DNA of 42,345 bases. It comes from a virus. Lineage: Duplodnaviria; Heunggongvirae; Uroviricota; Caudoviricetes. Where the stretch lies: positions 1 through 42,345 of IMG/VR virus record IMGVR_UViG_2609460346_000006; one strand, 5' to 3'. A program made the position numbers and the translations under genes. The notes beneath the pieces are model-generated. The model worked only from the letters and a program-made list of their open reading frames with translations. It had not been told where the DNA came from and did not search any database. How positions within the stretch are numbered: position 1 is the stretch's first letter; every line of letters starts with the position of its first letter. Positions 5,370 through 37,061 of this stretch are shown here, in pieces.

Positions 5370-5562
5370 AACTAAGCCGCCTCGTTGAAACGACTGAGGT
5401 ATGAAGTGTTGAGTTGATTTCAGCTGGTCACACCGACGTTCACGCGTCCGCTTCACCCCTCGCACTTCCCGAAGCCTGCTGAAATTCAAGCTGCGGACCT
5501 AAGCGGTCATCGCAACGGTGAATCAGGTGGTTGCCGTATCGTTGTGTTGTTGCGATGAATTT

Positions 5563-5660
5563 ATTTAAAACTATAGTTGTTTTGTTGTCAACAACAAAAG
5601 TTGTTTTATTGGTTGTTTTAGATGTAACTGGTTGTATTTAGGATGGGTTTATTTTGTGAC
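5563..5660 (-). promoter_or_regulatory. Putative oL/pL: leftward early promoter with repressor operators
   Basis: On minus strand TTGACA (5586-5591), 17-bp spacer, TTAAAT (5563-5568); inverted repeat TTGTTG-TCAA-CAACAA overlaps the -35; repeated GGTTGT half-sites (5610-5640) match the half-sites in OR. Confidence 0.55.
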
Positions 5661-5732: not shown

Positions 5733-5762
5733 ATAAAAGAAAACCCGGCACGGTGGCCGGGT
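5733..5762 (-). terminator. Rho-independent terminator after the rex-position gene
   Basis: 7-bp GC stem ACCCGGC/GCCGGGT (5743-5762) followed on the minus strand by a T-run (5733-5742). Confidence 0.7.
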
Positions 5763-5766
5763 ATCT

Positions 5767-6720
5767 TTATTCGAATGGAAGATCTATTTGCCTTTGAGGA
5801 TTCAACTGTTTTTTTACATGCTCAATTTCGAATATGGTTTTTATGGCATCTCCGATCATATATTGAGTTACTTTTAAATCTACAAGTAACATATCACCTT
5901 TAGAAAAATTTAAGGTGTTGTTATCAATATCGCTGATGAATTTCTGGTCTTTTATTTCAGCCAAAAAGCTACTGGCACCATCAGAAAACCGCCACCGGCT
6001 TCCTTCATTGAAGGAAATATTTTTAATTTGAAGGGCTTTCTCTACTGTGTACTCTGAAATTATTGATTCTGCTGGTAGATTGACTTTGAAATAATGTGCT
6101 TCTTGCTTGTTGATCGTCATGAATGTCAAACCATCATCGACAGTAGAGGCAAAGCTGTCAATGCCTTCCTGCTCTAATGGCTTACTTATAACTTCTTGTA
6201 ATGAAGAGCGAAGTTTAATATTTTTATAAAGTTCAATAACGTTACTGTCGTAGATCTCGCTTTCGTCATCAACAAAGACTTCGATGTTGCTATCAGGCAA
6301 ATTGTGTAATTTTTTTATTTTCCTTGGACCTATCCATTTTATCAGTTGAATTAGGCCTTTGCATATTTTTTCTTTAGAACCAGGACAGAGTCCAATAAAA
6401 GCAATCAAATTCGCAGCGGCTGTTGCTGAATCGCCGGATAAAAAATCAACAGCCTGTTTGAACCAAGATGTAGATGAGGCAACCAGATCTATTCCAAATG
6501 AGCCAGCTTTAAATGATGCATTGACTTTTACAGAAACAACAGTCTTGTTTCCGTAGAGAGTTTTACCGGCTTCCTCTAATGCATCTGATAGTGATAGAAG
6601 GGCAGGAGCAAGGTCTCGCACGTTCATTTCATGCGTTTCCAGTGCCGGACCGTCGTATACTATCCTGAACTTCATATCATTGGTTTCCGAATTGTTGCCC
6701 GCATCCATTATGGCATTCAC
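5767..6720 (-). CDS. Unknown 317-aa protein in the rexAB slot; candidate lysogen-expressed accessory/defence gene
   Basis: Long AT-rich ORF directly downstream of and co-oriented with cI, own terminator, followed by oL/pL; no catalytic motif, TM segment or P-loop seen; start is GTG at 6720 or ATG at 6708 (AGGTGA 8 nt upstream). Confidence 0.7.
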   Translation of the reverse strand: MNAIMDAGNNSETNDMKFRIVYDGPALETHEMNVRDLAPALLSLSDALEEAGKTLYGNKTVVSVKVNASFKAGSFGIDLVASSTSWFKQAVDFLSGDSATAAANLIAFIGLCPGSKEKICKGLIQLIKWIGPRKIKKLHNLPDSNIEVFVDDESEIYDSNVIELYKNIKLRSSLQEVISKPLEQEGIDSFASTVDDGLTFMTINKQEAHYFKVNLPAESIISEYTVEKALQIKNISFNEGSRWRFSDGASSFLAEIKDQKFISDIDNNTLNFSKGDMLLVDLKVTQYMIGDAIKTIFEIEHVKKQLNPQRQIDLPFE

Positions 6721-6781
6721 CTGATCACATATACAGTTAATTTACGATATTGTCTTAAATCTTAAAACTTCTATTGTATGG

Positions 6782-7471
6782 CTACCCATGCTTCCTATAC
6801 GTCTGCGGCATGCTCCCAATAACCTTACCGAAGATGAACACCCGGTTCATCTCGTCTTTCTCGATCGGGTCCCAAGGTGAGTAGCTCTTGTTATCAGAGA
6901 TAACCAGCAGCTTATCCTTCATCATTTGCAGACGCTTTACATGGGCTGTGTCGTCGTACAGAAACGCATAGATACCATCACCGTCGAAAGATTTAACCGT
7001 GATATCAACGAACAGCAGATCACCTGGTTCGATCGTTCCTGACATGCTGTCACCGCGTACGTTAATGATACGGATATTTTCCGCCTTCCTGCCATCGAAC
7101 ATGTGACGAGCATCGTCAAACGAATACTCAACCGAACGTAGAACTTCTACAAACTCACGGTTGATGACTCCCGGCCCGGCACTCACTTCGATATCAAGAA
7201 CGTCAATCTTAAAGTATTTGGAATGGCTGACAGTTGTTTGTATTGGTTGCACTGTACTGTCTGACATATTTCCAACGCCAGAAGATAACCATTCTGCGCG
7301 CACACCCAAAGCGTTCGCGATCTCCACGATTTTAGTTGTTTGGTTAGCTTTCCCTGTTTCGATTTTCTGAATAGCTGCTTGGCTAACCCCGACCAAATCC
7401 CCAAGCGCCTTTTGTGTAAGGCCTCGCGCTAATCTGGCTTCTTTAAGTCTTTCTGAGAGTGTTGTTTTCAT
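6782..7471 (-). CDS. CI-like prophage repressor (N-terminal HTH, C-terminal S24/LexA-like peptidase)
   Basis: 229 aa from ATG 7469-7471; HTH (…LTQKALGDLVGVSQAAIQKIETGK…), Ala-Gly cleavage site (…VSAGPG…), Ser/Lys dyad (…GDSMSG…, …HVKRL…); divergent from cro across an operator region. Confidence 0.9.
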   Translation of the reverse strand: MKTTLSERLKEARLARGLTQKALGDLVGVSQAAIQKIETGKANQTTKIVEIANALGVRAEWLSSGVGNMSDSTVQPIQTTVSHSKYFKIDVLDIEVSAGPGVINREFVEVLRSVEYSFDDARHMFDGRKAENIRIINVRGDSMSGTIEPGDLLFVDITVKSFDGDGIYAFLYDDTAHVKRLQMMKDKLLVISDNKSYSPWDPIEKDEMNRVFIFGKVIGSMPQTYRKHG

Positions 7472-7575
7472 AGTCCAAATGTACAACCAAGGTTTTATTT
7501 CATCAAACGAAAATGGTTGTTGACTAAAAACAACCATGGTTTTAATCTTGATTCAAATTAACCACGGAGGTTGTT
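7472..7575. promoter_or_regulatory. OR region: divergent pRM/pR with three TGGTTGT-type operator sites
   Basis: Sites at ~7482-7492, 7514-7524, 7529-7540; candidate pR -35 TTGACT (7520-7525) with -10 near 7541-7548; GGAGG RBS before cro ATG. Confidence 0.6.
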
Positions 7576-10129: not shown

Positions 10130-10428
10130 CGGGCAAAGAGGCAATTATTCATTACTTGGGGACTCATAAGAACTTCTGTGCGCAGGACGTTGCCGCGGTA
10201 ACAGGTGCAACCGTAACCAGCATAAATCAGGCTGCGGCTAAAATGGCGCGGGCAGGAATCCTGGTCGTTGATGGTAAGGTCTGGCGAACGGTGTATTATC
10301 GGTTCGCTACCAGAGAAGAATGGGAAGGAAAGGTGAGCACGAATTTGATTTTTAAGGAGTGTCGCCAGAGTGCCGCGATGAAACGGGTATTGAGGGTATA
10401 TAAAAGAACATCAATGGGTACACAATGA
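10126..10428 (+). CDS. ren: Ren protein
   Basis: 100 aa, close match to lambda Ren (MTGKEAIIHYLGTH…ATVTSINQAAAKMARAG…). Confidence 0.9.
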   Translation: MTGKEAIIHYLGTHKNFCAQDVAAVTGATVTSINQAAAKMARAGILVVDGKVWRTVYYRFATREEWEGKVSTNLIFKECRQSAAMKRVLRVYKRTSMGTQ

Positions 10429-10495
10429 TGAAACAGGTGAGTTGAGTTCAAACTGTAGTACAATTCTCTCCAGTTTGAACAGGAAAGAATATGCT

Positions 10496-10828
10496 ATGAA
10501 TCCTTATATTTATCTTGGTGGTGCAATACTTGCAGAGGTCATTGGTACAACCTTAATGAAGTTTTCAGAAGGTTTTACACGGTTATGGCCATCTGTTGGT
10601 ACAATTATTTGTTATTGTGCATCATTCTGGTTATTAGCTCAGACGCTGGCTTATATTCCTACAGGGATTGCTTATGCTATCTGGTCAGGAGTCGGTATTG
10701 TCCTGATTAGCTTACTATCATGGGGATTTTTCGGCCAACGGTTGGACCTGCCAGCCATTATAGGCATGATGTTGATTTGTGCCGGTGTGTTGGTTATTAA
10801 TTTATTGTCACGAAGCACACCACATTAA
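10496..10828 (+). CDS. emrE: EmrE small multidrug resistance (SMR) efflux transporter
   Basis: 110 aa from internal ATG; matches E. coli EmrE (MNPYIYLGGAILAEVIGTTLMKFSEGFTRLWPSVGTIICYCASFWLLAQTLAYIPTGIAYAIWSGVGIVLISLLSW…). Confidence 0.95.
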   Translation: MNPYIYLGGAILAEVIGTTLMKFSEGFTRLWPSVGTIICYCASFWLLAQTLAYIPTGIAYAIWSGVGIVLISLLSWGFFGQRLDLPAIIGMMLICAGVLVINLLSRSTPH

Positions 10829-11083
10829 AAATAATTTGTTTTTAAACGACTAAAATATGGAGGCTCGTATATTTATATGGGCCTCGTTTTATGCTTTTTG
10901 TTAATGTCTTTAGTTTTTATTCATTCTTTTGTGCTTTCAAGATTATGGTGTAAGAAAATTGCAATGCGATTATTGTTGTATATTCAAAATAATGTGACCT
11001 TAATTGTCTTTTTAAATAAAAATTAAACAAAAATCATATCTCACCACTAAGGTTTATAAAAGCATACTTTAGCAGGTGTCACC

Positions 11084-12610
11084 ATGAAAAAAGCCATAGC
11101 ATATATGCGATTTTCATCACCAGGTCAGATGTCTGGTGATTCATTAAACCGCCAGAGAAGGCTTATTACTGAATGGCTAAAGGTAAATAGTGATTATTAC
11201 CTTGATACCGTAACGTATGAAGATTTGGGGTTAAGCGCATTCAATGGAAAGCATGCACAATCAGGAGCTTTTTCGGAATTTTTAGATGCTATAGAACATG
11301 GTTATATATTGCCAGGGACTACATTGTTAGTTGAAAGTCTGGACAGACTTTCAAGAGAAAAAGTCGGTGAAGCGATTGAGCGTCTGAAATTGATTTTGAA
11401 TCACGGTATTGATGTTATAACTCTTTGCGATAATACAGTCTATAATATTGACTCATTGAATGAGCCATATTCATTAATAAAAGCCATACTTATAGCACAA
11501 AGGGCAAATGAAGAAAGCGAGATAAAGTCAAGTCGGGTTAAATTATCATGGAAGAAAAAACGGCAGGATGCACTGGAGTCAGGCACGATTATGACGGCTT
11601 CTTGTCCGAGATGGCTCTCATTGGATGACAAAAGAACGGCTTTTGTTCCAGACCCCGACAGGGTGAAAACTATTGAGCTAATTTTTAAACTCAGGATGGA
11701 AAGGCGCTCATTGAATGCAATAGCCAAGTATTTAAATGATCATGCTGTAAAGAATTTCTCAGGAAAAGAAAGTGCATGGGGACCTTCTGTAATTGAAAAA
11801 TTATTAGCGAATAAAGCTCTGATAGGTATATGCGTACCTTCATATCGTGCAAGAGGGAAAGGGATAAGTGAAATCGCTGGCTATTATCCCAGAGTCATAT
11901 CAGATGATTTGTTTTACGCTGTACAGGAAATTCGGTTGGCACCTTTTGGTATTAGCAATAGTAGCAAGAATCCTATGCTAATAAATCTACTTCGAACAGT
12001 TATGAAGTGTGAGGCTTGTGGTAATACCATGATTGTTCATGCGGTATCTGGAAGTTTGCATGGCTATTATGTTTGTCCGATGAGAAGATTACATCGATGT
12101 GACAGACCATCAATAAAAAGAGATTTGGTTGATTATAATATCATTAATGAATTGCTTTTTAATTGTAGCAAAATTCAACCAGTTGAAAACAAGAAAGATG
12201 CTAATGAAACTTTAGAGTTAAAAATTATTGAGCTTCAGATGAAAATTAATAATTTAATCGTTGCATTGTCTGTCGCGCCTGAAGTTACCGCTATAGCAGA
12301 GAAAATAAGACTATTAGATAAGGAATTACGAAGGGCTTCGGTATCATTAAAAACTTTGAAGAGTAAAGGGGTGAGTTCACTTGGTGATTTTCATGCTATT
12401 GATTTAACCAGTAAAAATGGGCGAGAGCTATGTCGTACACTTGCCTATAAAATATTCGAAAAAATTATAATTAATACAGATAATAAAACCTGTGATATCT
12501 ATTTTATGAATGGCATTGTTTTTAAACACTATCCTTTAATGAAAGTAATATCCGCCCAGCAGGCGATAAGTACTCTTAAATATATGGTTGATGGTGAGAT
12601 TTATTTTTGA
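11084..12610 (+). CDS. ybcK: Large serine recombinase (YbcK-like)
   Basis: 508 aa; N-terminal resolvase-type catalytic domain (…AIAYMRFSSPGQ… with catalytic Ser, …LLVESLDRLSR…), Cys-rich zinc-ribbon region and coiled-coil C-terminus; AT-rich. Confidence 0.8.
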   Translation: MKKAIAYMRFSSPGQMSGDSLNRQRRLITEWLKVNSDYYLDTVTYEDLGLSAFNGKHAQSGAFSEFLDAIEHGYILPGTTLLVESLDRLSREKVGEAIERLKLILNHGIDVITLCDNTVYNIDSLNEPYSLIKAILIAQRANEESEIKSSRVKLSWKKKRQDALESGTIMTASCPRWLSLDDKRTAFVPDPDRVKTIELIFKLRMERRSLNAIAKYLNDHAVKNFSGKESAWGPSVIEKLLANKALIGICVPSYRARGKGISEIAGYYPRVISDDLFYAVQEIRLAPFGISNSSKNPMLINLLRTVMKCEACGNTMIVHAVSGSLHGYYVCPMRRLHRCDRPSIKRDLVDYNIINELLFNCSKIQPVENKKDANETLELKIIELQMKINNLIVALSVAPEVTAIAEKIRLLDKELRRASVSLKTLKSKGVSSLGDFHAIDLTSKNGRELCRTLAYKIFEKIIINTDNKTCDIYFMNGIVFKHYPLMKVISAQQAISTLKYMVDGEIYF

Positions 12611-12934
12611 GTAATAATCACTTTTTCAACCGTGCTATGGTATGAAAGTAAAGTGACTAATATGATATTAACTATCTTGAACGAAGCGCCCTGAGCTATA
12701 GTTTTACTATAGGCACTGCCACTGGATGTTGGCATTCTTGCTCTAGTAGCTCAACAATACCCAATCACAAAACAATTCACTGATAACAAACTTTGTGCAC
12801 GTGCTTGGTTATGGCGAACAGGTGATGTTAACCTCTTGCCTGAATGCCACTCCACTTCATTAAGTATCTGAGCACCGAGAGGCTGGTCACGCCCCCATTA
12901 AAAATAATTTCTTTTGAATCGAGTGAAATAGGTT

Positions 12935-36798: not shown

Positions 36799-36998
36799 GT
36801 AAAGAATGTTGTTTCTGCGGCATTAGCGAATCAGACGCTGATCAAACATACATTTACTCTAAAGAAACAGGTCGGATGCTGTGTAGTGACTGCGTGTTGG
36901 ACATCATAAGATACAAGCATCTTGGATGTTCTGCCAGCATTAGCAATATAGGTGAAGTATATGAAGGGAAAGATATAACTGATAGAGCAGAAAGTTGA
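36795..36998 (+). CDS. Small zinc-ribbon protein between arc-like and ant
   Basis: 67 aa, ATG overlapping the arc-like stop; CxxC…CxxC (…CCFCG…CSDCV…). Confidence 0.5.
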   Translation: MSKECCFCGISESDADQTYIYSKETGRMLCSDCVLDIIRYKHLGCSASISNIGEVYEGKDITDRAES

Positions 36999-37061
36999 AG
37001 CCCCAACTGCGGTAACAGTCAGGGCTTCGGTATCGTAAAACCACGCATAGGAATTAACGAC

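Follow-up and report, generated by a model that had tools for sequence, protein, structure and literature searches.

A LAPAL / PDC-S42 family gene as single-gene mobile cargo in the cI-to-terminator slot of a lambdoid prophage, with a candidate LexA-type control site

The closest described counterparts of the gene analyzed here include lambda rexA-rexB, in which RexB is the membrane channel protein of RexAB exclusion, and BstA of prophage BTP1, reportedly (the account is credited to Owen and colleagues, 2021) an abortive-infection protein encoded next to the repressor. Autonomous phage accessory cassettes with deviant base composition and their own promoter and terminator are known as morons, in the sense of Hendrix and colleagues. 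The gene in question, which we refer to as the LAPAL gene, lies on a stretch of 42,345 nucleotides (nt) (the window; positions 1 to 42,345 of IMG/VR record IMGVR_UViG_2609460346_000006) that represents a lambdoid prophage integrated next to icd. Its family is one of the PDC systems, 145 untested ‘guilt-by-embedding’ candidates that were nominated because their members are embedded in BREX, DISARM, type I restriction-modification (R-M) or Hma loci (Payne et al., bioRxiv 10.1101/2024.01.29.577857). The TERi locus of the Listeria comK-prophage, with which the setting of the gene can be compared, encodes small proteins with a terminase-targeting mechanism (Azulay et al., bioRxiv 10.1101/2025.02.27.640495).

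The LAPAL gene makes up a mobile one-gene cargo cassette that belongs to the LAPAL / PDC-S42 / PHROG-3243 family and occupies the slot between cI and a downstream terminator. Genes of the prophage are ordered int, xis, exo, bet, gam, kil, the LAPAL gene, cI, a cro-like gene (YdaS), a cII-like gene (YdaT), O and P, with the LAPAL gene directly downstream of cI, in the same orientation and opposite to the lytic operons. GGTTGTT/AACAACC half-sites occur at oR (7502-7545) and to the left of the gene (5565-5641), forming inverted-repeat pairs I1, I2, I7, I9 and I20; this places the LAPAL gene between cI and oL/pL, i.e., in the ‘rexAB slot’ to which an earlier interpretation of the window (the sequence-only reading) had assigned it. 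We tentatively favor, at somewhat less than an even chance, the view that it encodes an SOS-gated candidate exclusion/defense protein of the lysogen that binds a phage component and is not catalytic. The defense role in this view rests on genomic context, and the molecular target is a guess.

The edges of the slot were derived from blastn breakpoints against four sister coliphages (PhiR47_2, PhiR34_1, PhiR26_1 and PhiR30_1), whose flanks are ~95-97% identical to the window. Similarity breaks off at 5761-5764 and at 6782/6783, positions that coincide with the outer edge of a terminator stem and with the cI stop codon, respectively. Compared across these related prophages, the cI-oL interval contains a true cargo swap site and, judging from the alignments, the stretch from the cI stop codon to the terminator is the precise site of exchange in this phage group. 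Independent PADLOC defense candidates make up three of the four non-empty cargoes known in the slot, the window’s included (Table 1); GevA of PhiR47_2 carries an ASCH domain. The claim that the slot is a site for exclusion or defense genes is strengthened by the PDC-M11 and PDC-M63 cargoes of the sister phages and by homologs that lie beside unrelated repressors (see below). The gene had also been credited with its own terminator. The hairpin and U-tract begin 5 nt past the LAPAL stop codon (free energy -17.3 kcal/mol, z -4.9), and the same hairpin is found in PhiR34_1 despite its empty slot. Because homology to the sister phages, including PhiR34_1, runs through the hairpin, the terminator belongs to the backbone of the immunity operon and not to the cargo.

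The open reading frame (ORF) listing gives 954 nt without interruption on the minus strand, and GC content in the gene region is ~35-37%, against ~50% in the flanking recombination and repressor genes, so that the long AT-rich ORF of the sequence-only reading is borne out and the deviating base composition of a moron is present. We regard it as a real gene, not a chance ORF, because so long a stop-free stretch in AT-rich DNA is very unlikely by chance, because homologs are many, and because 16 columns are invariant across 58 diverse family sequences. The proposed length of 317 amino acids (aa) holds for the longest ORF, which opens with GTG; translation probably starts from ATG 6708 and yields 313 aa, since AGGTGA precedes this codon by 8 nt, the closest homologs begin at the equivalent methionine in the alignment, and RefSeq annotates a product of 313 aa in identical E. 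coli prophages. Alleles at least 99% identical to the gene occur in 34 of 5,426 complete E. coli genomes.

The protein had been described as lacking any recognizable motif, which proved incorrect; of the family collections searched, only Pfam had no match. It matches the PADLOC hidden Markov model PDC-S42 over its full length (3.4e-86, 287 bits; residues 15-316 against profile positions 3-300 of 302), its sole PADLOC match, as well as phrog_3243 of PHROGs (1.3e-116; labeled function unknown) and the equivalog-level NCBIfam family NF053583 (LAPAL_fam; 270.4 bits against a cut-off of 60), the latter named ‘LAPAL motif-containing putative phage structural protein’. The LAPAL motif (residues 37-41) lies within D36-L37-A38-P39-A40-L41 of the window protein, with L37 and P39 invariant. 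Pfam gave no match above noise; the sub-threshold similarity to DUF2004 (E 0.11) was dismissed as such. To call the gene undescribed was therefore an overstatement, since its family already figures in these catalogs, in PADLOC as an untested single-gene candidate; literature searches returned nothing on PDC-S42, the LAPAL motif, phrog_3243, NF053583, GevT/GevA or the PhiR phage names.

One search recovered 370 homologs, and an exhaustive profile search (E <= 1e-3) recovered 5,246 clusters at 50% identity. The best 150 matches of the exhaustive search are all ~300 aa with one full-length match each, and none of these 150 has a domain fusion that might serve as a functional clue. Relatives are present in Enterobacterales, Methylococcales, Burkholderiales, Halomonas, Stenotrophomonas, Acinetobacter, Desulfobacterota and Candidate Phyla Radiation (CPR) bacteria and, at 27-33% identity, in phages of Lactobacillus, Listeria and Bifidobacterium; the family (PHROG 3243) is almost always phage-borne. 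In 63 of 79 loci, gene GC content is at least 3 points under that of the locus, which fits a horizontally mobile accessory gene.

An AlphaFold2 model was built with the 58-sequence alignment (full length, mean predicted local distance difference test 81, predicted template modeling score [pTM] 0.63; N-terminal 215 residues alone, pTM 0.80). Residues 16-215 returned only a generic ferredoxin-like sandwich match and include a moderately hydrophobic linker (residues 86-130) of low model confidence. The C-terminal part is predicted to have the topology of an oligonucleotide/oligosaccharide-binding (OB) fold, within which F237, W243, G248, F261 and D276 are conserved. A PDB sequence-profile search yielded zero matches even at E <= 10, and Foldseek found nothing in the PDB at E <= 0.001, its only matches being to the OB domain. 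Most invariant positions hold hydrophobic residues or glycine (mainly Gly, Pro, Leu, Phe and Trp), with a few Asp, Arg and Lys in addition; the protein contains no nuclease, protease or NTPase motifs, and the family alignment has no conserved catalytic residues. The whole protein is acidic (isoelectric point [pI] 5.0) and has no transmembrane segment. A membrane or pore role for the hydrophobic linker (~90-112) was considered and rejected, as neither the window protein (maximum 19-residue hydropathy 1.31) nor the family median (1.51) reaches a transmembrane threshold. From the model and alignment we infer that the protein is non-enzymatic and serves as a soluble binder or sensor; binding of single-stranded DNA is proposed with caution because the OB domain is acidic.

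The leader of the window gene was aligned with those of homologs from Pseudocitrobacter, Trabulsiella, Serratia, Lonsdalea, Yersinia and an E. coli Rac-like prophage. Similarity sets in abruptly ~45 nt before the start codon, with GTAAATTTACTGTATATGnGATCAGGTGAATGCCATAATG, and the shared element TACTGTATAT-N5-CAGGT constitutes a LexA-type box of the form CTG-N10-CAG. The box is kept at a fixed distance in at least six enterobacterial genera with unrelated upstream flanks, and its variation across copies is limited to central positions. Scored against a TACTGTATATATATACAGTA-type consensus, the window copy reaches 13/20 and homolog copies 13-14/20, compared with 16/20 for the recA and 15/20 for the uvrA/ssb operators of MG1655; boxes of at least 12/20 are found in 0.34% of 130-nt background windows from the same loci. 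The box of loci L022/L023 is identical to the uvrA/ssb operator at 17 of 20 positions. By this sequence score, the enterobacterial LexA operator pattern is present near the 5’ end of the window gene, and its placement on the ribosome-binding site suggests SOS-gated expression in the enterobacterial clade. We found no prior description of this SOS-type control element. As a family-wide trait the box was rejected, given its absence from non-enterobacterial loci and the Salmonella homolog; with the box limited to the enterobacterial clade, SOS gating is not a property of the family as a whole. The leaders of the Lactobacillus A2 and Listeria homologs contain no Cheo box.

Between cI and the LAPAL gene, the 76-nt spacer is unstructured (z = +1.2) and contains no terminator-like structure, so that read-through from the cI promoters is expected. 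In the Rac-type leader (locus L005), a perfect TATAAT follows the box at a distance of 3 nt. For the window leader, no sigma-70 promoter scored at least 9/12; only weak candidates (AAGACA-17-TATATG and TGTATA-17-CATAAT) are discernible by eye. To describe the gene simply as lysogen-expressed with cI is probably incomplete, because a conserved LexA-type box sits on its ribosome-binding site. In PhiR30_1, a LexA-type box (TACTGTAATTTTATACAGCT; L004 4046-4065; 15/20, a perfect CTGT-N8-ACAG) falls within the PDC-M63A gene, ~70-90 nt from its annotated 5’ end; LexA control may recur in the cargo of the slot, or the annotated PDC-M63A start may be wrong.

Control by LexA together with a predicted OB fold would also suit an induction-phase helper, a protein that is switched on with cI cleavage and acts on host or phage DNA metabolism and does not exclude incoming phages. 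It might modulate RecA filaments or single-stranded DNA, protect replication intermediates, or act in an antirepressor-like manner on co-resident prophages. The conserved box over the ribosome-binding site, the resemblance of the predicted fold to SSB, PriB and RPA, and the very similar LexA operator of chromosomal ssb all speak for such a role, as do homologs in a Mu-like early region; several others follow repressors that have no S24 cleavage domain (L005, L015 and L022), where a LexA-controlled induction factor would fit. The cI of the window, however, has its own S24 autocleavage domain, making an antirepressor unnecessary here, and the protein has no Pfam similarity to the antirepressor families Ant, Tum or Bro-N/KilA. 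The gene is also dispensable, the slots of sister phages being empty or differently filled, and most of the family lacks the box. We consider this explanation unlikely.

The genomic neighborhoods of homologs were surveyed with a crude ORF caller and, for high-GC loci, a filter on GC content at third codon positions, and the neighbor-family counts are lower bounds. Among the two upstream ORFs of 79 species-level loci, HTH_3 was found in at least 10, Peptidase_S24 in at least 6 and YdaS in at least 3. Repressor-adjacent homologs are downstream of unrelated repressors and co-oriented with them: in E. coli Rac-like prophages, a homolog 60% identical to the window protein is located after a RacR-type repressor and before kilR; in Salmonella, the preceding repressor consists only of a helix-turn-helix (HTH) domain; two different phages have the Pseudomonas-type homolog behind an S24 repressor; and a Burkholderia homolog comes after a 162-aa gene oriented divergently to the early genes. 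In Gram-positive phages, the Lactobacillus A2 homolog is situated between endolysin and integrase, and the Listeria homolog belongs to a repressor-side operon next to int. Other copies occur in phages of the Mu type, between gemA and mor in an early region and between the G and I genes of head clusters (at least 5 of 79 loci), with Mu T and portal genes nearby. In Mu-like prophages of Halomonas and other hosts (L060, L064, L078, L050 and similar loci), the homolog has a Mu G-type gene on one side and the Mu I protease/scaffold gene on the other, and the intergenic spaces measure ~180-190 nt. The Mu-like head cluster is a second recurrent moron site.

These head clusters raise the question of whether the product is a lytic-cycle accessory, a virion-associated protein or a counter-defense factor that benefits the phage itself. 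The NCBIfam name, the phage-borne nature of the family and the Mu G-type virion-morphogenesis gene just upstream in 5/79 loci, with Mu I, Mu T and portal genes close by, agree with this. We nevertheless hold it to be very improbable. In the window and in most resolved contexts, the gene is part of an immunity or lysogeny module (as are the Gram-positive homologs) and is far from structural genes; it has the orientation of cI, opposite to the lytic operons, and is optional among near-identical phages. The wide gaps in the Mu-like clusters suggest an inserted moron, not an operon member, and the ‘structural protein’ name probably stems from the minority of copies found there.

Homologs in the Burkholderia cepacia complex occupy a conserved chromosomal site near a MerR-P-loop gene and metabolic genes. 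At several Burkholderia loci (L049, L056, L073, L086 and others), a gene of ~340-380 aa with a MerR HTH and a P-loop (GSGKT) is directly upstream on the same strand, and MerR matches were obtained for 8 large neighbors of homologs; the MerR-P-loop gene and the LAPAL homolog may form a two-gene unit in Burkholderia. In two Tepidimonas genomes (L044 4572-5911 and L047 2119-3458), a DUF6932 gene and a gene of ~300-318 aa directly precede the LAPAL homolog and share its strand. A batch scan of large neighbors gave two PDC-M63B matches, which were assigned to the L044 and L047 genes by inference; if this assignment is right, PDC-M63 and LAPAL, which alternate in the E. coli slot, would be in tandem here. 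Defense genes also neighbor the family, namely SoFic and a type IIG enzyme (L079), type III mod/res (L048) and a ZorD/DpdE-like helicase (L098). A BstA_C protein is encoded near the homolog in L008-L010, two genes away in Acinetobacter.

The conserved chromosomal site in the Burkholderia cepacia complex is one of the observations that would accord with a lysogen-fitness moron, e.g., a factor for DNA-damage stress tolerance or a modulator of host physiology with no role in phage conflict. A BamE-like lipoprotein fills the slot of PhiR26_1, the prophage has other host-type morons such as emrE, and LexA-type control ties the gene to the DNA-damage response. We find this quite improbable given that three of four non-empty slot cargoes are defense candidates, that family members reside beside R-M, SoFic and ZorD-like genes, and that the family was nominated for the embedding of its members in defense systems.

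Under the exclusion/defense reading, basal expression would come from read-through of cI (pRM/pRE) transcripts and would rise on LexA cleavage, when DNA damage or an infecting phage triggers SOS. The protein would act as a stoichiometric binder and not as an enzyme, its OB and ferredoxin-like modules binding an intermediate of replication, recombination or packaging, either single-stranded nucleic acid or a protein of the phage, and this binding would block phage development. Several observations weigh against this proposal. The literature found reports no phenotype for any family member. Neither the Salmonella homolog nor those from outside the enterobacterial clade carry a LexA-type box, no sigma-70 promoter of at least 9/12 is present in the window’s leader, and LexA control is equally compatible with a role in prophage induction. 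Homologs are also found in Mu-like early regions and between Mu G/I head genes, sites where expression in a lysogen would be expected only if the gene had a dedicated promoter. Neighbors with a defense function are a minority (~6 of ~86 loci), and the OB region is acidic (pI 4.97 here; family median 5.08), which is atypical for a single-stranded DNA binder.

A broader version of the exclusion/defense reading, which we put forward as doubtful, holds that LAPAL / PDC-S42 is a single-protein, non-enzymatic immune module (>5,000 clusters) that recognizes either an SSB-like protein of the phage or an intermediate in phage replication or packaging and that, in enterobacterial prophages, is silenced by LexA and released by SOS. 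If true, this would amount to damage-gated exclusion, expressed when the resident prophage and the host are most vulnerable. Were the defense role to hold, the gene would offer an inexpensive entry into a very large dark family with one architecture. The locus is suited to experiments: it is a single gene, the allele is at hand in complete E. coli genomes, and near-isogenic sister phages with an empty slot or another cargo provide natural controls. The candidate LexA operator is a specific regulatory hypothesis, and an exchange site that holds several independent ‘guilt-by-embedding’ candidates supports both the idea of a hotspot and those predictions. If the defense reading is wrong, LexA control and an OB fold would point to an unrecognized prophage function in the SOS/induction phase.

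The features of the locus and the slot contents of the sister phages are collected in Table 1. The longest ORF of cI (251 aa) extends to 7537, into the operator region; the RefSeq start at 7471 (MKTTLSERL...) leaves 7472-7575 for oR, pRM and pR. Between the candidate pL and kil (window ~5480-5600), no N-like antiterminator ORF is present, and a perfect 10-bp stem (5507-5516 / 5549-5558) follows shortly after the candidate pL on the leftward transcript. This stem, for which no Rfam match was obtained, could be an RNA antitermination element like HK022 put. Rfam does identify a sar RNA (RF00262) at 36993-37060 on the minus strand (85.7 bits against a gathering score of 43). In the P22-type immI (ant) region, sar serves as the antisense RNA, and its presence here indicates that the prophage also has a second, antirepressor-type immunity region distant from immC. 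A second low-GC island (30-39% GC) occupies the nin region (window ~10400-12800); in identical E. coli prophages it is annotated with emrE (small multidrug resistance [SMR] efflux), a ybcK-type serine recombinase and an alpha/beta hydrolase, which are further morons.

Table 1. Features of the cI-to-oL interval of the window and contents of the corresponding slot in related phages (window positions unless a locus is named).
Feature	Position	Strand	Remarks
LAPAL / PDC-S42 family gene	5767..6720	-	longest ORF 317 aa, GTG at 6720
Exchangeable cargo cassette	5765..6781	-	leader with LexA-type box plus gene; limits are the cI stop codon and the backbone terminator
LexA (SOS) box-like site	6719..6738	-	AACTGTATATGTGATCAGGT (CTG-N10-CAG); overlaps Shine-Dalgarno of the 6708 start
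Shine-Dalgarno AGGTGA	6717..6722	-	8 nt before ATG 6708; read from sequence
Alternative ATG (Met16)	6675	-	family conservation starts here, MKFRIVYDGPAL
Residues 16-215	6076..6675	-	predicted beta-alpha-beta-beta unit (LAPAL motif 37-41), linker 86-130, alpha/beta middle part
Predicted C-terminal OB-fold barrel, residues 216-317	5770..6075	-	b1-b2-b3-alpha-b4-b5
Intrinsic terminator of the cI operon	5743..5762	-	hairpin, then UUUUCUUUU
cI-type repressor	6782..7471	-	HTH_3 and Peptidase_S24; RefSeq 229 aa
oR / pRM / pR region	7472..7575	.	operator palindrome ATGGTTGTTGACTAAAAACAACCAT at 7513-7537
oL / pL region	5563..5641	-	repeated GTTGTT/AACAAC half-sites matching oR
Candidate pL -35 TTGACA	5591..5586	-	read from sequence
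Slot of the window			LAPAL / PDC-S42 gene
Slot of PhiR34_1			121 nt filler, no gene
Slot of PhiR47_2	L001 2777-4205		GevT/GevA, toxin-antitoxin annotation; PADLOC PDC-M11A/B
Slot of PhiR26_1	L003 2776-3156		BamE-like lipoprotein, 126 aa
Slot of PhiR30_1, 4A7 and Lambda_4C10	L004 2780-4134 (PhiR30_1)		DUF6932 gene (141 aa) and 310-aa gene; PADLOC PDC-M63A/B

In comparison with known systems, the locus resembles lambda rexA-rexB in its position downstream of cI and before oL/pL, its orientation, the lack of an intervening terminator and its optional nature for the phage. The lambda pair differs in having two genes, one for a membrane protein, whereas LAPAL is one gene with no transmembrane segment; PADLOC returned PDC-S42 and no similarity to RexA or RexB, and we know of no LexA-type box for lambda rexAB. 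BstA is likewise a single protein of ~300 aa beside a prophage repressor, but the LAPAL protein has no KilA-N or BstA_C domain (Pfam, PADLOC) and its predicted fold is ferredoxin-like plus OB. With SSB, PriB and RPA it shares the predicted OB topology at an identity of only 5-15%; there is no Pfam SSB or PDB sequence match that would make it a member of the SSB family, SSBs lack the additional N-terminal part of 215 residues, and the LAPAL OB domain is acidic family-wide.

The window gene belongs to the same family as PDC-S42, with the difference that it is not embedded in a BREX, DISARM, type I R-M or Hma system and instead resides in a prophage immunity region. It is also of the same family as NF053583 and PHROG 3243, whose ‘structural’ label is not supported by the window locus or by most contexts. 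The TERi locus is alike in having a conserved regulatory backbone with alternating unrelated defense cargoes; its proteins are unrelated and the locus is a different one, so the likeness is an analogy only. Taken together, the LAPAL gene is of a known kind, a repressor-adjacent prophage accessory/exclusion cassette, and not a categorical novelty; what it adds to that kind is an uncharacterized protein architecture and a candidate SOS-type control element.

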